Of a DNA stretch of 64,000 nt, positions 7,805 to 29,420 are shown piece after piece. The stretch lies in NCBI GenBank assembly GCA_020743075.1, contig DYVS01000149.1, positions 8,159 to 72,158 on the forward strand. Direction: 5' to 3'. Positions within the stretch are counted from its first letter, which is position 1, and every line of letters starts with the position of its first letter. The stretch comes from Butyricimonas virosa (GTDB lineage: Bacteria; Bacteroidota; Bacteroidia; Bacteroidales; Marinifilaceae). A program made the position numbers and the translations under genes. Below the pieces are notes generated by a model. It was not told where the DNA came from. It made no database searches and saw only the letters and a list, made by a program, of their open reading frames with translations.

Positions 7805-8812
7805 ATGGCGAAGCGGGTAGCTATTATTATATTGAATTGGAACGGGGAGAAGTTGTTACGGGAGTTTTTGCCCTCGGTCGTGAAGAATACGAATGCTGAT
7901 TTGGGGCGTGTTGTTGTTGTGGATAACCATTCTACGGATGGTTCCTGGATATGTTTGGAACAAGAGTTTCCAGACGTGGAACGGGTGCTGTTCGAGGAGA
8001 ATTTCGGATTCGCTGGGGGTTATAACCGGGCGATCGAGATGATCGAGGTAGAATATGTGGTTCTTTTGAATAGTGACGTGGAGGTCGCTCCCGGTTGGTT
8101 GGAACCGTTGGTCGCCGTGTTGGACCGGGACGAGAAGGTTGCGGCCGTGCAGCCGAAGATATTAGCATATCGGGATAAAAACAAGTTTGAGTACGCCGGA
8201 GCGGCTGGGGGATACATTGATTATTTAGGATTTCCGTTTTGCCGTGGGCGTGTGATGGATACCACGGAACAGGATTATGGACAGTACGATGATGAGGTAG
8301 ATGTTTTTTGGGCAACGGGGGCCTCTCTATGTATTCGGCGGGACGTGTACCGTGTAGCCGGAGGGTTGGACGAGGCTTTTTTTGCGCACATGGAAGAGAT
8401 TGATCTTTGTTGGCGATTGAAAAATGGAGGGTATACTTTAAAGGTGGTTCCTTCTTCTGTCGTCTACCATTTGGGGGGAGGCTCATTGCCGATGAATCAT
8501 CCGAGAAAATTGTTTTTGAATTACCGGAATAATTTATTGATGTTGCATAAGAATCTGTGTGCTAAACAGCGTAAGAAAATCTTTTTTGCACGAGTTTTGC
8601 TGGACACGATGGCGGGAGGGCTTTTCCTATTGAAAGGTCAATGGTCCAACACCCGTTCGGTAATCCGGGCATACAAGGCTTTCCGGGAGATGAGAAAAGT
8701 CTATCCGGTTCCAGAACGTTCCGTGAGTCTTTCGGGAATATATCCCCGGAGTATCGTGTTGGATTATTTCTTGCGGGGTAAAAAGAAGTTCTCGGATTTA
8801 AATTTTAAATGA
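7805..8812 (+). CDS. family 2 glycosyltransferase
   Basis: 335 aa; VAIIILNWNG, VVVDNHSTDGS, LLNSDVEV, FWATGASLCIRR and EEIDLCWR motifs of GT2 rhamnosyltransferase-like enzymes. Confidence 0.8.
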   Translation: MAKRVAIIILNWNGEKLLREFLPSVVKNTNADLGRVVVVDNHSTDGSWICLEQEFPDVERVLFEENFGFAGGYNRAIEMIEVEYVVLLNSDVEVAPGWLEPLVAVLDRDEKVAAVQPKILAYRDKNKFEYAGAAGGYIDYLGFPFCRGRVMDTTEQDYGQYDDEVDVFWATGASLCIRRDVYRVAGGLDEAFFAHMEEIDLCWRLKNGGYTLKVVPSSVVYHLGGGSLPMNHPRKLFLNYRNNLLMLHKNLCAKQRKKIFFARVLLDTMAGGLFLLKGQWSNTRSVIRAYKAFREMRKVYPVPERSVSLSGIYPRSIVLDYFLRGKKKFSDLNFK

Positions 8813-10452: not shown

Positions 10453-10542
<90 letters not shown>

Positions 10543-10562
10543 CCAAGTTTGAAGCTCATTTT

Positions 10563-10636
10563 CGGGGCGTAGCGCAGTCCGGTAGCGCATCTGCTTTGGG
10601 AGCAGAGGGTCGCAGGTTCGAATCCTGTCACCCCGA
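10563..10636 (+). tRNA. tRNA-Pro (anticodon TGG)
   Basis: Acceptor CGGGGCG/CACCCCG (C1:G72, A73 as in bacterial tRNA-Pro), D-arm GCGC-AGTCCGGTA-GCGC, anticodon arm TCTGC-TTTGGGA-GCAGA, T-arm GCAGG-TTCGAAT-CCTGT; CCA not encoded. Confidence 0.9.
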
Positions 10637-10733: not shown

Positions 10734-10777
10734 CGTACATTTGTTTGCAAATAGTTTGCAAAAAATTGGTGAGAAAT

Positions 10778-21804: not shown

Positions 21805-21816
21805 AAATTTGGCGTT

Positions 21817-21851
21817 GGAATTTGAAATTACGGATAATAGTTGTATGTTTG
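21817..21851 (+). promoter_or_regulatory. Bacteroidota promoter, copy 1 of a duplicated promoter
   Basis: TTTG (21821-21824), 19-nt spacer, TATGTTTG (21844-21851); nearly identical to 22741-22776. Confidence 0.6.
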
Positions 21852-21874: not shown

Positions 21875-22681
21875 ATGGGACAATGTAATGATAATTCACA
21901 GCTCGCATTGAGAATTCATATCAAGAATTCAGAACCTATCCAAGTGTCTGATTTTACTGCATCAATGAACGCTATCGGATCGTACTTTTCTAGTTTTGCT
22001 CAAAAGAACGGTATGTCCAAGGAATTATCTAACGCCAAGCTATGCGTTAGCAAGATAACCGAAGGTTCTATTGACATTCATCTCGTTGAACTGGTTTCCC
22101 TATCCATGATCCCGTTCGTGGAGAATTTCAACTTAATCATGGAGTTTGCCAAGAACTTGAAAAACGTCTACGATTATTTCACTTCATCTTCTGGCGAAAA
22201 ACCAGAATTGACAGCTAAAGAATTGCAAGATTTGCATGATATTCTGTCAATACCTTCTAAAGATCAATGTGGGCAAATGGACATTCAGGTGATAAAAGGA
22301 GATGTTAATAATGTTGTCTATACTGGTTGCACTTTCAATTATATAGAGAGCAACGGTACCCAAAATTTAATTGATAAAGAGATTGAAATTGTAAAATCCG
22401 TATCTGAACAAGACGAGATACACACGAATCAACTCATGACCATGTATCAAATCAGGGGTATCAATAGCAATTCTGGAAATAAAGGGATAATAGAAGCGTT
22501 AAACAAAAAGGCGTTAAATCTCTTGTTTGAATCTGATGGAATCAAGGATCAGATAATAAATTCAAAGAACAATCCATTAAAGAAAGTGTTTGCCGTTGAT
22601 GTTGTTATACAAAACATGAATAACAAACCGTTTGCTTATAAAATCGTTAAACTACTTGATGTTTTTGATATAGAAGACTAA
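21875..22681 (+). CDS. hypothetical protein (self-contained moron)
   Basis: 268 aa from ATG 21875 (the track ORF starts at 21809 inside the promoter); own promoter and terminator; no recognised domain. Confidence 0.55.
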   Translation: MGQCNDNSQLALRIHIKNSEPIQVSDFTASMNAIGSYFSSFAQKNGMSKELSNAKLCVSKITEGSIDIHLVELVSLSMIPFVENFNLIMEFAKNLKNVYDYFTSSSGEKPELTAKELQDLHDILSIPSKDQCGQMDIQVIKGDVNNVVYTGCTFNYIESNGTQNLIDKEIEIVKSVSEQDEIHTNQLMTMYQIRGINSNSGNKGIIEALNKKALNLLFESDGIKDQIINSKNNPLKKVFAVDVVIQNMNNKPFAYKIVKLLDVFDIED

Positions 22682-22712
22682 CCTTCCACATATTTATATT
22701 TTTAGTATCAAG

Positions 22713-22737
22713 GCGAGTAAATTCTACTCGCTTTTTT
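22713..22737 (+). terminator. rho-independent terminator
   Basis: GCGAGTA-AATTC-TACTCGC followed by TTTTTT. Confidence 0.75.
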
Positions 22738-22740
22738 CGT

Positions 22741-22776
22741 GGAATTTGGAATTTAAAGATAATAGTTGTATGTTTG
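22741..22776 (+). promoter_or_regulatory. Bacteroidota promoter, copy 2
   Basis: TTTG (22745-22748), 20-nt spacer, TATGTTTG (22769-22776). Confidence 0.6.
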
Positions 22777-22781
22777 CCTTT

Positions 22782-22974
22782 GCCAAAGACTTATTGCAAA
22801 CAAACGTGTCAGAGCTATTTTTATGGCTACTGGTAAGCTATTATCTATAACGATATAAGGCTATCACCCCTTGTTGGCTATGACAGTTTGTTGTAGTGGT
22901 CTTTGGCGAGATAAGAGGGGCTGGTAGCCTTTCTTGTATTATTAATTTCAAATTTCATTCAATGCCAAAGACCA
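22782..22974 (+). promoter_or_regulatory. structured 5' leader L1 with alternative helices
   Basis: X GCCAAAGAC (22782-22790), X' TGGTCTTTGGC (22897-22907), X2 GCCAAAGACCA (22964-22974, includes the G of the ATG); helix AAGGCTAT (22857-22864)/GTAGCCTT (22924-22931); CCCC/GGGG inner helix. Confidence 0.5.
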
Positions 22975-23243
22975 ATGAAATTTGTAAAGGTGCGAAGTAT
23001 AGTAACACCCGAACACGTGAATCCCAACGAAAGAGGGAAATCCAAAAGTTGCAACACAAACTTTCCAAGTTGCACGAAGAATTAAGCAAGGAGAAAGAGT
23101 GTAAGGACAAAGCTTATTACTTCATCCTTAGCACGAACAACTTTAATAGATACGCTGAATTCAGTAAAAAATTTGACGGTTTCACGGCATGGCACGAGGC
23201 GTGCGTGGTGAAAATGCAAATGGACGCGTTGGAAAGTAAATAA
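22962..23243 (+). CDS. small coiled-coil protein, paralog A
   Basis: 93 aa from ATG 22962; KDKAYYFILSTNNFNRYAEFSKKF shared with the ORF at 25825 (KNKAYYFIISSGNFNRFAEFCKKH). Confidence 0.55.
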   Translation: MPKTNEICKGAKYSNTRTRESQRKREIQKLQHKLSKLHEELSKEKECKDKAYYFILSTNNFNRYAEFSKKFDGFTAWHEACVVKMQMDALESK

Positions 23244-23260
23244 TCTAAACCAAATAATAC

Positions 23261-23914
23261 ATGAAGACAAATCAAGAAATGATTCGTCCGATGGGTAATT
23301 TTAACGTTATCCAGAGGACGAAGGACGGTATGTTTAACGCCACTGATTTATTGAAACAATGGAATTCATTCAATAGTCAGCAAAAACAGATAGTCCACTA
23401 CACGGAGAATTCTTCCACGTCTGAATTTATAAACGCCTTGATACTAGAGGAAAATTTAAAAGAACGGAATTCCGTTATTATACAATGCAGAGGTAAAAAT
23501 GGTGGAACGTGGATGCATCCTTTACTTTTTATCGACTTTGCCATGTGGTTGAACCCAACCTTTAAGGTAAAGGTTTTAAAATTCGTTTCCGACGAGATGA
23601 TTCGTTACCGCAATGATGCCGGGGACGCTTACTTGAAATTAAGTTCTGCCGTGATGAAAATAGTACCAAGGGATTTCATGCCTAAAGCGATGAAGAAAAT
23701 AGCGGAGGCTTTAAACTGGGTAATATTTAACGAACACGAGAGTGGGATCAGGAACAAGCACGGGGAGGAAAGCAAGCAAAGAGAATTGTTTCACTTGGAA
23801 TCCAAGGTTACAGATCTTATAAACGAGGGATTTATCACGTCGTACGATCAACTTCTTAAATATTTAAGGAAACAATGGAATAATAATTGGCAGCCTAAAG
23901 TATTGCAAGTATAA
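23261..23914 (+). CDS. KilA-N domain protein
   Basis: 217 aa; FNVIQRTKDGMFNATDLLKQW...GGTWMHPLLFIDFAMWLNPTFKVKV. Confidence 0.8.
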   Translation: MKTNQEMIRPMGNFNVIQRTKDGMFNATDLLKQWNSFNSQQKQIVHYTENSSTSEFINALILEENLKERNSVIIQCRGKNGGTWMHPLLFIDFAMWLNPTFKVKVLKFVSDEMIRYRNDAGDAYLKLSSAVMKIVPRDFMPKAMKKIAEALNWVIFNEHESGIRNKHGEESKQRELFHLESKVTDLINEGFITSYDQLLKYLRKQWNNNWQPKVLQV

Positions 23915-24022
23915 ATAACAACGGGACAGGTAAATTGAATGTCACTAAAAACGGCATTTAACCCGAATCTGGACTTTAGCTAATAATAACACCTGTCCCG
24001 TTTTCAATCAAATAATGAAGGT

Positions 24023-24232
24023 ATGATGAAACGCCGAACCAAGCTTGCCAAACAGCCTGACAACCCACCGGATCGTGATATAGTGATCATCGCTACATCC
24101 CCTCCCACGGATTGCCTTACCTGTATTCATCATTCAGTTTGGAAGTACAACTTGATCGAGTGCAAGTACAGGGTTTGCCCGCAGCCTAACTGTAAACACA
24201 ACAACATCACTTGCGTGAATTATGAGAGATAG
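24023..24232 (+). CDS. small Cys-rich protein
   Basis: 69-aa ORF that overlaps the methyltransferase start. Confidence 0.35.
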   Translation: MMKRRTKLAKQPDNPPDRDIVIIATSPPTDCLTCIHHSVWKYNLIECKYRVCPQPNCKHNNITCVNYER

Positions 24233-24236
24233 AATA

Positions 24237-24971
24237 ATGACACACGGTAGTCTTTTTAGCGGTATAGGAGGTTTTGAGCTAGGAGCGGAATGGGCCGGAA
24301 TCCCTACCCTGTGGAACTGCGAGATTGAAGATTATCAACGTGAAGTTTTAAAAAAAAATTTTCCCCATGTTAAACAATACAGAGACATCACGAAAACATC
24401 AGGACTTGGACACGTGGACATCATTAGTGGAGGATTTCCGTGTCAAGACATCAGCGTTGCCGGCAAAGGTGAAGGTATTACCGGGAAGAGATCGGGGTTA
24501 TGGACCGAGATGCACCGAGTTATTCGGGAAGTTAGACCCGCTTACGTCATCATTGAAAACAGCCCAGCTCTCCTTTATAGAGGATTCGAGAGAGTGCTAT
24601 GCGACCTTTCCCAAAGCGGGTATAATGCAGAATGGCAATGTATACGTAACTCGTCTTTTGGATTCCCGCATCACCGTGAAAGGCTGTACGTTATTGCCTA
24701 CACCAACGAAATCAGACCACAAGGCAACGTTCGCGTCGATAGATGCTTTAAACCGGTATTTAAGGAGTGGACACCAAATTCGGATGATGGATATTCTTGC
24801 GCAAAAAGGATTCTCCAAATGCCAACGTGTGGCCATATTCGAAATGGTGATGGGTTTCCCGGCTGGATACACAGGGTTGGATCTATCGGGAACGCCGTGA
24901 ACCCGTGCGTGGCGAAGTATTTATTCGAGTGCATAAAAGAATTTGACAGGAAAGTAGAAACAATAGCTTGA
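24237..24971 (+). CDS. DNA (cytosine-5)-methyltransferase, orphan
   Basis: MTHGSLFSGIGGFELG (motif I), GGFPCQDISVAG (IV), IIENSPAL (VI), FPHHRERLYVIAY (VIII), FPGW...SIGNAVNP (IX/X); no adjacent endonuclease. Confidence 0.8.
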   Translation: MTHGSLFSGIGGFELGAEWAGIPTLWNCEIEDYQREVLKKNFPHVKQYRDITKTSGLGHVDIISGGFPCQDISVAGKGEGITGKRSGLWTEMHRVIREVRPAYVIIENSPALLYRGFERVLCDLSQSGYNAEWQCIRNSSFGFPHHRERLYVIAYTNEIRPQGNVRVDRCFKPVFKEWTPNSDDGYSCAKRILQMPTCGHIRNGDGFPGWIHRVGSIGNAVNPCVAKYLFECIKEFDRKVETIA

Positions 24972-24987
24972 ACTATAAAATTACACG

Positions 24988-25389
24988 ATGAAGAAAATCA
25001 AGAAATCATACATACGATTGGAATATATCAACTGCACGAATGACGCTGATATTATTGAAACTCACGGGGATAGAATGGTACATATTTATTCCCGTGAACA
25101 TGGACTTTACTGGAGTGGGGAAAGCGGGTACACGAGAGACAAGACAAAGGCTCACGCTTTCACTCTGCGACACGCTTACGGGCTCACGAAGCTATGCGGC
25201 CCGGAGAAAGGGATAGAATTTCATTTTATCGAAAAAGTACTACAAATAGACACGATAATTTGCCCTAATTGCGGGGGAACGTGTCAAGCGGAAGTGAAAG
25301 AGTCATTTCCTTTTAATGACTTTACTCACAAGTGCGAGCATTGCGGTTATTGGATCATGGAATCAGAATGGGAAACTATAAAAAAATAA
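24988..25389 (+). CDS. hypothetical protein with C-terminal zinc ribbon
   Basis: 133 aa; CPNCGG...CEHCGYW. Confidence 0.45.
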   Translation: MKKIKKSYIRLEYINCTNDADIIETHGDRMVHIYSREHGLYWSGESGYTRDKTKAHAFTLRHAYGLTKLCGPEKGIEFHFIEKVLQIDTIICPNCGGTCQAEVKESFPFNDFTHKCEHCGYWIMESEWETIKK

Positions 25390-25394
25390 ACTAT

Positions 25395-25592
25395 ATGAGC
25401 AAGAAAAGAAAAAACGACATCCGGAGAATAATCACGATTACCCCGGTAGAGTTCAAGACGGTAAAACGTGAAGAAGAATTCGTCAGCATGACAGCTTACG
25501 AGATGCTGGCTAACGCTTTCGATGCAGCGATGGACGAGATAACGATGTTAAGGGGCAAGCTGGCGAGAATACAGGAATTGATTAAAGAATAA
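25395..25592 (+). CDS. hypothetical protein
   Basis: 65 aa from ATG 25395, in frame with track ORF 25332-25592. Confidence 0.4.
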   Translation: MSKKRKNDIRRIITITPVEFKTVKREEEFVSMTAYEMLANAFDAAMDEITMLRGKLARIQELIKE

Positions 25593-25630
25593 AATATTCG
25601 ATTGATTAATTGGCATTTTGAAATTTGTTG

Positions 25631-25836
25631 TATCTTTGTGGTGTTCAGACCAAGAACACATACATATAATTGCAAATGGTATTTTTATGCCGTTTGATAG
25701 TTTATATCAGCAAAGATATAGGGCTATTCAATACCCGTAGCTGCCGTTTGCAAATATGTAAATGGTGTTCTTGGTCGAACAATCGGGGTTGAGTAGCCCT
25801 TTTTAAATACAAATTTCAAAGCTAATGACCAAGAAC
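25631..25836 (+). promoter_or_regulatory. promoter plus structured 5' leader L2 (paralog of L1)
   Basis: -7 box TATCTTTG (25631-25638); X GACCAAGAACAC (25648-25659), X' GTGTTCTTGGTC (25765-25776), X2 GACCAAGAAC (25827-25836, includes the G of the ATG); helix AGGGCTAT (25720-25727)/GTAGCCCT (25793-25800). Confidence 0.5.
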
Positions 25837-26118
25837 TTGAAATTTGCCGACAACGTACAAGGTACGATTAAACGCACGTCCACCCACGAAACGGGTAAAT
25901 TGCTATCTAAAATCAATTCGTTACAAGGACAGCTTGAATCTTGCAGGAACGCCCTAGAGATAGAGAAGAACGCCAAGAACAAGGCGTACTATTTCATCAT
26001 CAGTTCCGGTAACTTTAACAGGTTCGCCGAGTTCTGCAAGAAACACCCCGCCACTCTCGATTATCACGGGGCGTGCGTGGCCGAGTTGTACCTTCAAGCT
26101 GTTTCAAACGAGAAATAA
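25825..26118 (+). CDS. small coiled-coil protein, paralog B
   Basis: 97 aa; shares the KAYYFI.S..NFNR.AEF.KK core with the ORF at 22962. Confidence 0.55.
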   Translation: MTKNLKFADNVQGTIKRTSTHETGKLLSKINSLQGQLESCRNALEIEKNAKNKAYYFIISSGNFNRFAEFCKKHPATLDYHGACVAELYLQAVSNEK

Positions 26119-26253
26119 AAGATACATGATTAGAAAAATAAAATTCATCATGTGGTACTTGAAACTCCGTGTCAATGGATTTACCCACGGGGTTTCAATC
26201 ATGGCCCTTAAAGGCAAGGGCGGGAGGTTTTACAAACTTAAAAATCGGGAAAC

Positions 26254-26454
26254 ATGAAACGAACATTTTTAAAAATAATAGACGAGAGCAGTCATTTAGA
26301 AGTTGGGTGCGTAGATGGGTACATGGATATTTCAATATCATCCAACGATGATGATTATAATTATTTATCAGTTAAAATTACAGAAGATGAAATTCAAGAA
26401 TTAATAGACTTTTTGACTGAAAAGAGAAAAGAATTAGAAAAGGATAACGAGTAA
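26254..26454 (+). CDS. hypothetical acidic protein
   Basis: 66-aa ORF directly upstream of the replication genes. Confidence 0.4.
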   Translation: MKRTFLKIIDESSHLEVGCVDGYMDISISSNDDDYNYLSVKITEDEIQELIDFLTEKRKELEKDNE

Positions 26455-26456
26455 CA

Positions 26457-27314
26457 ATGGAAAAAGGATATATCAAATTATCTCGCAAATTTTTCGAGAA
26501 CAAGATATGGCAGGCCGCCCGGGCTTTTAATGAAGGAGAAGCGTGGCTGGATTTAATTCAACTGGCACGATTTGAAACTTCTGAGATTACATCTCGCATC
26601 GGGGTTCACGAAATAACTTGGGGAAGGGGACAATATCCGGCTTCTAACAGGTTCCTAATGAGGAAATGGGGACGTTCTGAACAATGGGTGAAAACTTTTT
26701 TGTCAAAGCTGAAAAAAGAGAAAATGATAACAGTAGATGCCAGTCAAGGCGTAAACGTTATAACTCTCTTGAACTATGATGCTTACAATTCGATTGGGGA
26801 TACTCAAAACTCACCAAATAACTCACTAAGTAACTCACTTAACAATATGACAGATATAGAGTTACAAGAGTTTATCACTCAACAAGTAACTCGGCAAGTA
26901 ACTCAAATGTCACTCACGTCCCACTCAAATAAAAAGAAAGATAAAGAATATAATAACAAAAAAGAACTATCTAACGATAGTTCCAAAAAAGCGACAGACG
27001 TCGCCACACGCAAAGATGCTTTTCTTTCCATGTTGAAATCTTTTTCTTCTCGTTACCCGGAGAGCATGTTGACGGACTTTTTCAACTACTGGACGGAACT
27101 CAACCCTTCCGGGAATAAGATGAGATTCGAGATGCAAAGAACTTGGGAAACGTCTAAAAGGCTTGCTACATGGGCGAAGAATGATTGGAATTTCTCCAAA
27201 ACAAAACAAGAATTACCACAAATACCATCTATTTTCGATTCTAAACCACAAAATGGCGACCGAAACGACAAGGGACAAGTGTGGAGCGAGGAGAAAAACA
27301 GGTGGCTAAATTGA
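26457..27314 (+). CDS. putative replisome organiser / replication initiator (winged helix)
   Basis: 285 aa; N-terminus GYIKLSRKFFENKIWQ...EAWLDLIQLA typical of phage replication-organiser N-domains; lies upstream of the primase-helicase. Confidence 0.5.
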   Translation: MEKGYIKLSRKFFENKIWQAARAFNEGEAWLDLIQLARFETSEITSRIGVHEITWGRGQYPASNRFLMRKWGRSEQWVKTFLSKLKKEKMITVDASQGVNVITLLNYDAYNSIGDTQNSPNNSLSNSLNNMTDIELQEFITQQVTRQVTQMSLTSHSNKKKDKEYNNKKELSNDSSKKATDVATRKDAFLSMLKSFSSRYPESMLTDFFNYWTELNPSGNKMRFEMQRTWETSKRLATWAKNDWNFSKTKQELPQIPSIFDSKPQNGDRNDKGQVWSEEKNRWLN

Positions 27315-27341: not shown

Positions 27342-29420
27342 ATGGATCGAATTGAAGTGATGAGAGCCTTGGAGGTGTTCTGCCCGGATGATAGGTTGTT
27401 CGAGATTCGAGCCATGCACGTGACGAGGAAACAGGACATCTGGAGCGGGTACTTCAAAGACCATCAGCTAGCGTGCGATGCCATACAGCGTTTCGATGCC
27501 GAGTACAATATCTACTTCGTGTTCAACTCGATAAGCGAGATGTGCTACTCCATGGCGCAGAAAGACAAGATGCTTCTCGGTGCAGAGAGCACGAAGGACA
27601 CGGATGTCGTTTGCCGTGACTGGGTCTTGATTGACCTTGATCCAGTCCGGGGACACAAGAAAATATCGAGTTCAAACGCCGAGTGGCAAGCGGCCAGAAC
27701 GAAGGCCGGGCAAGTGTGGAAGTTCTTGCGGGACAACGGTTTCTCTTTCCCGGTGGTTTGCTCTTCCGGTAACGGTTTACATCTCATGTACAAGGTTGAT
27801 AGCTGGGCGAACACCCCGGAGAACGACAAGATAGTTTCGGATTTCCTGAAAGCGTTAGCGTTACTTTTCACGGATGATAACGTTGATATTGACGTCAAGG
27901 TAGGTAACGCAGCTAGAATCACGAAACTGTACGGCACGGTGGCGAGGAAGGGGGCGAACGATCAAGACAGGCCGCACAGGCTGAGCAAGATTCTAACCGT
28001 GCCGGACGAGATAAAACCGACCGACAAGGAATTGTTTCTCAAGGTGAACAAGATACTGCCCGTGGAAGAAAAACCCACGTACAGCAATCGTTTCAACCAG
28101 GAAACTTTCAACATCGATGATTTTATCAACAAGCACGGGATACAGGTTTACCGGGACACGTCCGTGGCGGGGTTGAGAAAAATTATCTTGAAAGAATGCC
28201 CGTTTGACCCGTCCCACAAGGCCCCGGATTCGGCGATATTCGTGTCCCCTTCCGGGGCGATAGGATTCACCTGTTTTCATAATTCATGTTCAAGTTACAC
28301 GTGGAAGGACTTGCGGTTGAAGTACGAGCCGGACGCTTACGACAAGAAAGATTACCGGGAATTCGTACACAAGCAGCAATATTACGGCCACGTGCAACGG
28401 GAAGAGTTCAAGCCAAGGGAGGAAACGGAGGACAAGGGGAAGAAATGGTTATCCATGAGGGATATTAAATTTTACGACCCCTCTAAAGTGATCTCCATAC
28501 CAACCGGGTTTCTCGATCTAGACAAGGCCATCACCGGGTTAATACTCGGCGAGGTTTCGCTAGTTTCTGGTGTCAACGGTTCCGGTAAATCTAGCTGGTT
28601 GAACGTGGTGATGATGAACGCCGTGCAACGTGGTTTTAACGTGGCGTTGTGGTCGGGAGAGCTGGTCGATTTCAAGCTGAAAGGATGGCTAGATCAAGTG
28701 GCGGCGGGAAAGAATCACGTGGTGAAAAACACGTCGTACGACAACGTTTATTACACCCCTAGAAACATATCCGAGAAGATCAGCGAGTGGATGGAAAACA
28801 AGTTTTTCCTGTACAACAACAACTACGGGTGCAAGTGGGAACAGATCGTTCACGACGTGAAGGACGTGGTGACGAACAAGGGCGTGAAACTGGTCGTTAT
28901 CGATAACCTCATGGCTCTCGACATAGATGGACTTGACGGTGACAAGTACGGGAAACAGAAGAAATTCATCATCGACATTTGCGACATGGCGAAACAGATG
29001 AACATTCACGTGATACTCGTCGCTCACCCGAGGAAAGAAACCACGTTACTGCGCAAGGAATCGATTAGCGGCACGGCAGACTTGACTAACGCTGTTGATA
29101 ATTGTTTTCTTGTTCATCGGGTCGGAGAGGATTTCGTGAGAAGGGCGAGCGAGTTCTTCGGGAAAGAGAAAACGTTAAGGTACGCCGAGTACTCGAACGT
29201 GTTAGAGGTTTGCAAGAACCGGAGCATGGGAGTTGTTGACTATCTCGTCGGGATGTATTACGAGGTGGAAAGCAGGAGGTTTAAAAATTCAAGGGCAGAG
29301 TACATCGTGTACGGGTGGCAAGAACAACCTAAACAAACAGAATTATTCAAGAGAATCGAACCGGACAGGAGTTTTGATATTAACCCGTTCGAGGATGATT
29401 CGGAGAAAGCACCATTTTAA
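27342..29420 (+). CDS. AEP-type primase-polymerase fused to a DnaB/RepA-like helicase
   Basis: 692 aa; WVLIDLDP and SSGNGLHLMYKV (AEP catalytic motifs), Cys/His zinc module CPFDPSH...CFHNSC, Walker A GVNGSGKSS, Walker B LVVIDNLMAL. Confidence 0.75.
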   Translation: MDRIEVMRALEVFCPDDRLFEIRAMHVTRKQDIWSGYFKDHQLACDAIQRFDAEYNIYFVFNSISEMCYSMAQKDKMLLGAESTKDTDVVCRDWVLIDLDPVRGHKKISSSNAEWQAARTKAGQVWKFLRDNGFSFPVVCSSGNGLHLMYKVDSWANTPENDKIVSDFLKALALLFTDDNVDIDVKVGNAARITKLYGTVARKGANDQDRPHRLSKILTVPDEIKPTDKELFLKVNKILPVEEKPTYSNRFNQETFNIDDFINKHGIQVYRDTSVAGLRKIILKECPFDPSHKAPDSAIFVSPSGAIGFTCFHNSCSSYTWKDLRLKYEPDAYDKKDYREFVHKQQYYGHVQREEFKPREETEDKGKKWLSMRDIKFYDPSKVISIPTGFLDLDKAITGLILGEVSLVSGVNGSGKSSWLNVVMMNAVQRGFNVALWSGELVDFKLKGWLDQVAAGKNHVVKNTSYDNVYYTPRNISEKISEWMENKFFLYNNNYGCKWEQIVHDVKDVVTNKGVKLVVIDNLMALDIDGLDGDKYGKQKKFIIDICDMAKQMNIHVILVAHPRKETTLLRKESISGTADLTNAVDNCFLVHRVGEDFVRRASEFFGKEKTLRYAEYSNVLEVCKNRSMGVVDYLVGMYYEVESRRFKNSRAEYIVYGWQEQPKQTELFKRIEPDRSFDINPFEDDSEKAPF

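Follow-up and report, generated by a model that had tools for sequence, protein, structure and literature searches.

A candidate same-strand antisense switch at the first start codon of prophage early operons in Butyricimonas virosa and related gut phages

A 64-kb stretch of the Butyricimonas virosa genome (GCA_020743075.1, contig DYVS01000149.1, forward-strand positions 8,159 to 72,158; hereafter the window, numbered from its first letter) contains, by its sequence, an integrated temperate phage with tRNA genes and an integrase gene. Around the start of a 97-aa open reading frame (ORF) in this prophage, one short word is written three times: as the 5′ word W5 (GACCAAGAACAC, 25648-25659), as an inverted copy that is its reverse complement (GTGTTCTTGGTC, 25765-25776), and as the start word (GACCAAGAAC, 25827-25836), whose first letter is the G of the ATG at 25825. 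The 10-mer GACCAAGAAC occurs three times in the window, all in this leader (L2) and in direct, inverted, and direct orientation, against 0.12 occurrences expected from shuffles. What is such an arrangement for? A first-pass annotation had read L2 as the second copy of an RNA architecture also found at a companion leader, L1, with three switch segments that change together. Its coordinates and sequences for the L2 words were all correct, and the conserved blocks that it listed indeed follow one another in the same order in both leaders. Comparison with homologs established, at the sequence level, a promoter, pairing that is specific to the RNA strand, words that covary in all three places, two folds that covary and exclude each other, and the association of a leader cassette with anti-repressor and replication operons. 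We propose, with somewhat better than even confidence, that L2 is a cis-encoded leader RNA of ∼190 nucleotides (nt) with its own promoter, acting as a same-strand antisense switch on the first start codon of an early operon. The parts of L2 are as follows (MFE, minimum free energy structure).

25609-25638, + strand: promoter of the Bacteroidetes type, with a -33-like ATTG at 25609-25612, an 18-nt spacer, and the -7 box TATCTTTG at 25631-25638
25641-25659, + strand: 5′ word W5 in a possible 5′-terminal hairpin, H0
25661-25679, + strand: 5′ strand of P2, whose partner in Fold A is the P6 region at 25743-25764 (MFE)
25678-25691, + strand: P3 hairpin GGUA-UUUUUA-UGCC with a conserved U-rich loop (extended form, 25673-25696)
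25703-25720, + strand: P4 hairpin UAUAUC-AGCAAA-GAUAUA (helix 1; 87% of cells paired)
25720-25800, + strand: cloverleaf-like domain of Fold B, in which helix J/K (25720-25737 with 25784-25800) closes P6 and P7
25743-25766, + strand: P6 hairpin, enclosed by J/K
25767-25770 with 25777-25780, + strand: P7 hairpin with loop UUGGUC, enclosed by J/K
25765-25777, + strand: anti-word GUGUUCUUGGUCG, complementary to W5 and to the start word
25785-25805, + strand: T hairpin GGGGUU-GAGU-AGCCCU followed by UUUUU, terminator-like, part of Fold A and exclusive with J/K
25811-25819 (AAAUUUCAA) with 25837-25845 (UUGAAAUUU), + strand: P5 hairpin (MFE), with AUG 25825-25827 and start word 25826-25836 in its loop

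Homologous leaders were collected in two sets. A protein-family search yielded 96 loci from IMG/VR, human-gut metagenomes, and two metagenome-assembled genomes (one Butyricimonas and one Bacteroidales). A leader profile gave 92 matches, at practically all loci with sufficient upstream DNA, and within the window it matched L1 and L2 only; 38 distinct complete leaders make up this first set. A further 87 IMG/VR stretches were retrieved with a DNA pattern derived from the 3′ portion of the leader; a covariance model confirmed 84 of them, and these contributed a second set of 43 complete unique leaders, a few of them the same as in the first. In total, ∼170 related loci (numbered below with the prefix L) yielded ∼75 distinct leaders, among which at least 23 versions of the word occur. 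Word pair counts are based on a gapless alignment anchored on the AUG (A6; 29 distinct rows), whereas a covariance model of the Fold B domain (R1) aligned 39 distinct sequences. RNAalifold on plain MAFFT alignments kept helix J alone or T alone. The other helices were lost because insertions and deletions shift the register, and covariance-model and anchored gapless alignments were therefore used. Anchoring helix J at its outermost MFE pair gave inconsistent registers, which were not used for counts.

The three word segments were found to change together, and not independently, across the whole family, as the first-pass annotation had proposed from two copies. The anti-word pairs with the start region over 10 to 14 contiguous positions, always from the U of the AUG, in the 38 and 43 unique leaders of the two sets; the 5′ word pairs with the anti-word over 10 to 17 positions in all leaders except L022, which carries an inversion, and L089. 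In the anchored alignment, 90% of cells are paired between anti-word and start word, with a covariation score of 0.61 against 0.07 to 0.14 for slid controls, and 79% between 5′ word and anti-word, with a score of 0.56 against 0.11 to 0.20; neither score was reached by any of 500 shuffles. The 11-bp core of the anti-word:start helix is paired in 29/29 distinct sequences with up to four pair types per position, and both sides change in 12 of the 14 pairs. Cognate word duplexes average -21.1 and -19.4 kcal/mol, as opposed to -10.5 and -9.5 kcal/mol for noncognate ones, of which ∼1% equal the cognate. Examples of the words are GCCAAACTTC, GCCAAGAAAC, GCCAAAGTCCC, GGCAAAGCGAA, and GCCAAGACGAA, as well as GACCAAGAATC, GCAAGAGACAA, GCCAAACCTGA, GCCAAGTCCAA, and GCCAACGAACC. 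Scaffolds that are 92 to 93% identical bear different, fully compensated words. All pairs of leaders at a scaffold distance of 0.10 to 0.20 differ in the word (word p-distance, 0.26, with an invariant 5-nt core), and below 0.10 the word is shared. Since word divergence broadly tracks scaffold divergence, these comparisons suggest, rather than demonstrate, diversifying selection for new word specificities.

These repeats could in principle belong to the DNA, as operators or recombination sites, or reflect a recent duplication followed by random drift, which would have undone the claim of selection on RNA structure. It is true that the words are direct and inverted DNA repeats and that one locus, L022, has a 12-bp inversion of its 5′ word. 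However, the helices become longer in 29/37 and 25/37 leaders when G-U pairs are allowed, but in only 8 and 3 when A-C pairs are; because G-U but not A-C lengthens them, the pairing is that of plus-strand RNA and not of DNA repeats. At L006, the 5′ and start copies differ at positions where G-U preserves pairing, and several other helices covary as well. Nor can drift produce at least 23 words that changed jointly in three places. We thus consider a DNA-level element or drifting duplicates hardly credible, and the covariation of words and closing helix in the homologs indicates selection on transcribed RNA structure.

The -33 TTTG/-7 TAnnTTTG pair is the Bacteroides promoter consensus. A -7 box TAnnTTTG lies 191 to 215 nt 5′ of the ATG in 37/37 first-set leaders and in 43/43 complete leaders of the second set, and a -33 TTTG precedes it at a 19- to 20-nt spacer in 29 of the 37 first-set leaders. 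Transcription of L2 would start at about 25643-25646. The 5′ word begins 2 to 12 nt 3′ of the -7 box and, because the promoter is immediately upstream, would be located at or within a few nucleotides of the 5′ end of the RNA. In L2, H0 consists of GTGTTC (25641-25646), the loop AGACCAA, and GAACAC (25654-25659); by eye, it is present in most homologs. At L089, neither the 5′ word nor the -7 box was found. No opposite-strand promoter for a countertranscript is conserved among the homologs. The L022 inversion (L022:2735-2790; IMGVR_UViG_3300045988_177419) is seen against L008: in the 5′ hairpin that carries the 5′ word, 7-bp inverted repeats flank a 12-nt loop whose orientation is exactly reversed, from GGTGCTC[AATTGGCAAAGC]GAGCACC to GGTGCTC[GCTTTGCCAATT]GAGCACC, so that the 5′ word becomes a second anti-word. 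A natural hairpin-templated mutation, a DNA inversion, or an assembly artifact could account for it. A fourth, internal word copy, GCCAAGAACAAG (25972-25983, encoding NAKNK), was rejected, as the best internal sites are scattered across homologs and none covaries with the anti-word. It lies in NAKNKAYY, the most conserved motif of the 97-aa protein, within a small palindrome (25970-25987), and looks coincidental.

Both leaders of the window fold markedly more stably than shuffles (L2, -72 kcal/mol, z = -7.0; L1, -71.8 kcal/mol, z = -6.0), and the family has two alternative structures. Fold A is the MFE of 36/36 full-length leaders tested (mean, -73 kcal/mol). It contains a long hairpin with the 5′ word and the P2 strand on one side and the P6 region and the anti-word on the other; T and a U-rich tract follow, and the start word is unpaired in the P5 loop. 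P2 pairing co-evolves (-13.1 kcal/mol for cognate versus -6.7 kcal/mol for noncognate partners, 3% of which equal the cognate), and the P5 arms likewise average -10.1 versus -5.9 kcal/mol. The P3 stem occurs among homologs as AGCUA/UGGCU, GUAGAU/AUCUAC, CAGCAU/AUGCUG, and GGUAU/AUACC.

Folding of the 3′ part by itself yields Fold B, the same cloverleaf-like domain being the MFE in nearly all homologs. Its helix J/K, made of the closing helix of the first-pass annotation plus the CCCC/GGGG blocks, encloses P6 and P7; in P7 the variable part of the anti-word is in the stem and its conserved core UUGGC in the loop. The compensatory pair described for the closing helix, AAGGCTAT/GTAGCCTT in L1 versus AGGGCTAT/GTAGCCCT in L2, holds and is joined by further variants, at least 10 versions of this helix being found in homologs. 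Model R1 scores 74.5 bits on L2 and 88.4 bits on L1. Across its 39 sequences, 80.8% of cells are paired versus 41 to 52% for slid controls, both sides change in 28 of 32 pairs, and the covariation score is 0.417 versus 0.09 to 0.14, reached by 0/500 shuffles. T and J/K are mutually exclusive because J/K uses both arms of T; on steric grounds, J/K and the long hairpin of Fold A would not coexist either. A natural variant, L024:2744-2947, lacks 9 nt of the 5′ strand of helix J (AGTCGTCGA) and otherwise equals the L008 leader; with the covariance model it scores 42 bits, down from 63. Conservation of unpaired bases is confined to hairpin loops (UUUUUAU and UUGGC) and the tail CCUUUCUU. The J/K multiloop is variable (alignments A5 and A7) and Rfam has no match, so the features expected of a riboswitch were not found.

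The end of the domain shows a further regularity. In all homologs, the purine block GGGAGG/GGGGU of K3 is followed by J3 and then by the near-invariant pyrimidine tail CCUUUCUU (25784-25808 in L2 and 22916-22937 in L1). Block and tail resemble a Shine-Dalgarno/anti-Shine-Dalgarno duplex, the 3′ end of 16S rRNA being CCUCCUUUCU, but may be no more than a hairpin of the terminator-like kind.

The companion leader L1 contains the same parts.

22745-22974, + strand: L1 leader
22745-22748 and 22769-22776, + strand: L1 promoter, -33 TTTG and -7 box TATGTTTG
22779-22791, + strand: W5 of L1
22857-22871 and 22916-22931, + strand: J5/K5 and K3/J3
22897-22910, + strand: anti-word of L1
22962, + strand: ATG, followed by the start word at 22963-22974

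The L1 word GCCAAAGAC likewise occurs three times in the window (22782, 22899 inverted, and 22964), all in L1, with 0.34 expected. The first ORFs behind the two leaders encode paralogs of 93 and 97 aa (41% identity, E = 5e-19), in agreement with the relationship that the first-pass annotation had assigned to them. The leaders themselves are predicted to be orthogonal: cognate duplexes range from -17 to -22 kcal/mol, as opposed to -7.6 to -9.5 kcal/mol for L1 × L2 crosses. A second two-leader genome (L037 and L042) also bears two different words. However, two leaders in one stretch were found in only 2 of the ∼170, namely, the window and one IMG/VR contig, so the occurrence of two copies per genome, which had prompted the comparison with putL/putR, is an exception. 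A third copy of the L1-type promoter module (GGAATTTGAAATTACGGATAATAGTTGTATGTTTG, 21808-21851) has no leader behind it; a short plain 5′ untranslated region leads to the ATG at 21876 of a PHROG 9226 gene. Because this copy drives a leaderless gene, promoter and leader are separable modules.

The N-terminal codons, which include the start word, behave as RNA rather than as protein, because the N-terminal residues are disordered and hypervariable and one motif is read in two frames. Specifically, the AlphaFold2 model of the 97-aa protein (predicted local distance difference test, 79) has residues 1 to 19 disordered ahead of three helices; the N terminus varies in step with the word (MTKN, MPKT, MPRN, MAKR, MPNF, and others); and the P5 3′-arm motif UGAAAUUUG is translated as NEIC in L1 and as LKFA in L2. 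No family or fold match to the 97-aa protein was found in Pfam, in PHROGs, or with Foldseek against PDB and BFVD, and a Rop-like role as a kissing-complex binder found no structural support.

In the second locus set, the leader and the first 20 to 25 codons form a portable cassette 5′ of unrelated proteins. These include 78- to 105-aa relatives of the window proteins, another 97-aa family, a 60-aa hydrophobic (small membrane) protein, a 206-aa protein with weak AntA/Ant similarity, and a 233-aa Rha-family regulator (Pfam, 7.8e-28). The next gene encodes an Ant-type anti-repressor in L110 (E values of 1e-32 to 6e-35) and L145 (7e-59), and the L110 cassette is located 3′ of RusA, as in the window. 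The gene at L076:1006-1650 is a recombinant that encodes a KilA-N domain joined to the C-terminal half of a small protein of the L2 type (…NAKNKAYYFIISSGNF…); a deletion apparently removed everything between the two cassettes, with its junction at GCCAAGAACAAG, which resembles the word of that locus. The leader probably gates anti-repressor and replication operons, as the genes behind L1 and L2 also suggest.

22962-23243, + strand: 93-aa ORF, first gene of the L1 unit
23261-23914, + strand: KilA-N gene, followed in the L1 unit by a C5 methylase gene
25825-26118, + strand: 97-aa ORF, first gene of the L2 unit
26457-27314, + strand: DnaD-like loader gene
27342-29420, + strand: primase/helicase gene

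How would the switch operate? The anti-word (11 to 14 nt, made of the conserved core UUGGC and a variable specificity part) would have two alternative partners, the word copy at the 5′ end of the transcript and the U of the AUG together with codons 2 to 4 or 5. In Fold B, the cloverleaf domain would offer the anti-word core in a hairpin loop, with the start word in the loop of a second hairpin. If these two paired, the start codon would be hidden in an mRNA that, as is general in Bacteroidetes, lacks a Shine-Dalgarno anchor; the first ORF would be shut off and, through polarity, so would the anti-repressor or replication genes that follow. In Fold A, the 5′-most 55 nt (5′ word and P2 strand) would sequester the anti-word, serving as an internal anti-antisense, and the start codon would stay accessible. 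On this model, pairing would block translation, Fold A would be the ON state, and Fold B would be the OFF state. The most natural output is control at the start codon, given that in every homolog the U of the AUG and codons 2 to 4 or 5 are covered by the anti-word; the structured RNA and the translational control considered in the first-pass annotation are thus retained, but not its analogy to putL/putR.

Several points weigh against this proposal. Forcing the anti-word:start pairing gives a mean of -63 kcal/mol compared with -73 kcal/mol for the MFE, i.e., the 5′ word wins by ∼10 kcal/mol at equilibrium, and occlusion of the start codon would therefore need a trigger; candidates for what shifts the balance are processing, a copy acting in trans, a protein, and co-transcriptional kinetics. 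Once J/K is formed, the same pairing is a pseudoknot whose feasibility is a matter of argument. The T hairpin and its U tract could make termination, and not translation, the main output, and P5 alone might modulate initiation. Finally, the leader is known from its sequence and from computed folds.

The start-codon switch overlaps with a model in which acting in trans is the selected function, and it is on this last point that the two differ. The cloverleaf domain, terminated or processed from the leader, would accumulate in lysogens as an immunity RNA similar to c4 or CI, which we regard as possible but doubtful. Pairing with the 5′ and start words of the prophage and of word-matched superinfecting transcripts, it might keep anti-repressor and replication operons off, with the word defining the heteroimmunity group; this extension, too, is tentative. 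On the same view, the leader would be an RNA-only programmable immunity switch, a possibility to which we assign well under even confidence: by binding to the 5′ word, the released cloverleaf would drive newly made transcripts toward the fold in which their own anti-word is exposed, a positive feedback, and a variable word of 6 to 8 nt would set heteroimmunity groups, the operons being held off with no protein repressor acting at these promoters. The succession of target, antisense, and target on a single strand is that of seqA-CI-seqC of P4 and of c4 of P1. The synteny of leader, small ORF, and then Ant/KilA-N/Rha or replication genes is in line with such a function, as are the near-identical scaffolds with different compensated words, the orthogonality of L1 and L2 and of L037 and L042, and the placement of the word cores in hairpin loops. 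The anti-word loop UUGG also fits the YUNR U-turn, a motif typical of antisense RNAs. Yet the stable short RNA and its processing are hypothetical; the leader has no homology to the Rfam C4 family; pairing within one molecule should prevail over pairing in trans; and the parallel divergence of words and scaffolds noted above does not favor the model.

A transcription attenuator would use the same exclusive helices differently. In Fold A, T and its U tract (25785-25805) would terminate transcription, whereas in Fold B, J/K would sequester the T arms and permit read-through, the start word being secondary. A terminator scan flagged T-like hairpins with U-rich tracts in both L1 and L2, T is in the MFE of all homologs with pairing potential in 93% of cells, and it excludes J/K by construction. 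However, its covariation is uninformative, as scores just as high are obtained with shuffled and slid controls; many homologs have interruptions in the U tract; and the match of the anti-word to the start-codon region in every homolog is left unexplained. We therefore judge attenuation unlikely as the primary function. Still less probable, indeed very improbable, is the processive antitermination that the first-pass annotation had put forward as an alternative, in which a put-like RNA modifies RNA polymerase in cis. The position directly 3′ of early promoters and the two copies in this prophage recall put, but put needs no complementarity to a start codon or 5′ end, nor would it account for bistability; two copies per genome are the exception, and a bistable RNA of ∼190 nt is not a pair of adjacent stem-loops.

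Rfam assigned only two tRNAs in the window at the gathering threshold, and cmscan of 22500-26300 at E ≤ 10 returned four chance-level matches, none of them C4. The start-codon switch nonetheless has counterparts among known phage and plasmid RNAs. The details of the c4-icd-ant operon of P1 and P7 were reportedly worked out by Citron and Schuster (1990 and 1992) and by Biere et al. (1992). In P1, c4 RNA represses Ant synthesis (PMC8546580). As in c4-icd-ant, the leader carries a same-strand antisense within the operon that it would control, the target overlaps the start region of a small first ORF, anti-repressors follow downstream, and related phages differ by matched changes in antisense and target, seen here at the sequence level. 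Unlike c4, it shows no sequence or structure homology to that RNA, uses one word instead of two short boxes, occurs in a Bacteroidales host, where initiation is not Shine-Dalgarno led, and has a 5′ segment of 55 nt with which all of the antisense region can be locked into a long hairpin. In P4, CI RNA is flanked by the complementary seqA and seqC and controls the replication (primase/helicase) operon in the prophage state (PMC4825925). The succession of upstream target, antisense, and downstream target on one transcript is that of seqA-CI(seqB)-seqC, and L2 precedes loader and primase/helicase genes; the P4 output, however, is premature termination with processing of CI, whereas the downstream target of the leader is a start codon, and the two are not homologous.

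The metastable and stable folds of hok mRNA, described by Gultyaev, Franch, and Gerdes, set access to its start region through tac/fbi and ucb/dcb pairings with coupled covariations. Like hok, the leader has one segment with two alternative partners, all three covarying, and involves the 5′ end of the transcript; unlike it, hok is a toxin mRNA with the opposite-strand antisense Sok and 3′ processing, and there is no homology. In Gifsy-1, IsrK exists as a short terminated RNA and a read-through mRNA, and the short form acts on the long one, opening or closing alternative helices around the first ORF (PMC4825925). That is again a prophage leader with alternative helices around a first ORF, but IsrK activates translation, belongs to a P4 SeqA-like structural family, and shares neither sequence nor architecture with L2. 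HK022 putL/putR are cis-encoded RNAs 3′ of early promoters, sometimes in two copies per genome, as here, yet they act on RNA polymerase and do not pair with an mRNA start; the leader is set apart from put by anatomy, not by sequence comparison. By its layout, the leader would fall in the functional class of c4 and CI: it is a same-strand leader antisense to the start of the first ORF, has an upstream, seqA-like second target, heads an anti-repressor or replication operon of a temperate phage, and shows matched word changes between relatives at the sequence level. It thus resembles, on sequence evidence, the logic of c4/CI without homology to them.

Further genes of the prophage are given below; known phages match it only distantly, Bacteroides phages reaching ∼70% identity across single genes.

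10453-10636: two tRNA genes
10745-11977: tyrosine integrase gene
3′ of the integrase region, rightward: early genes for YqaJ exonuclease, SSB, and RusA, followed by L1

Among the leftward accessory genes, one that adjoins the integrase gene encodes a SocA/Panacea antitoxin-domain protein (12476-12964, - strand; Pfam, 2.7e-20). No Pfam match to a CI-like helix-turn-helix repressor family was obtained in the eight leftward ORFs scanned (11991-16502). Where the rightward early region begins, a DUF7666 ORF (16551-17243) contains three tandem 27-nt repeats (16947-17038; TCATCGGGT.ATG.CGCA.AGATCGGG), which may act as iteron-like or operator-like sites or reflect repetition in the protein.

Collectively, these findings point to what appears to be a widespread and previously uncatalogued leader RNA family of gut Bacteroidales temperate phages, with no match in Rfam and no description found in the searchable literature. 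What sets its specificity is unusually plain: a single short word present in three copies, which word swaps can therefore test directly. The leader may also serve as an orthogonal, programmable gate for translation in Bacteroides, for which such tools are few and in which initiation makes no use of Shine-Dalgarno pairing. Given the anti-repressor and replication genes behind it, the leader is likely to belong to the circuits by which abundant gut temperate phages choose between lysis and lysogeny, and it would extend the principle of c4/CI RNA-based immunity beyond enterobacterial phages.

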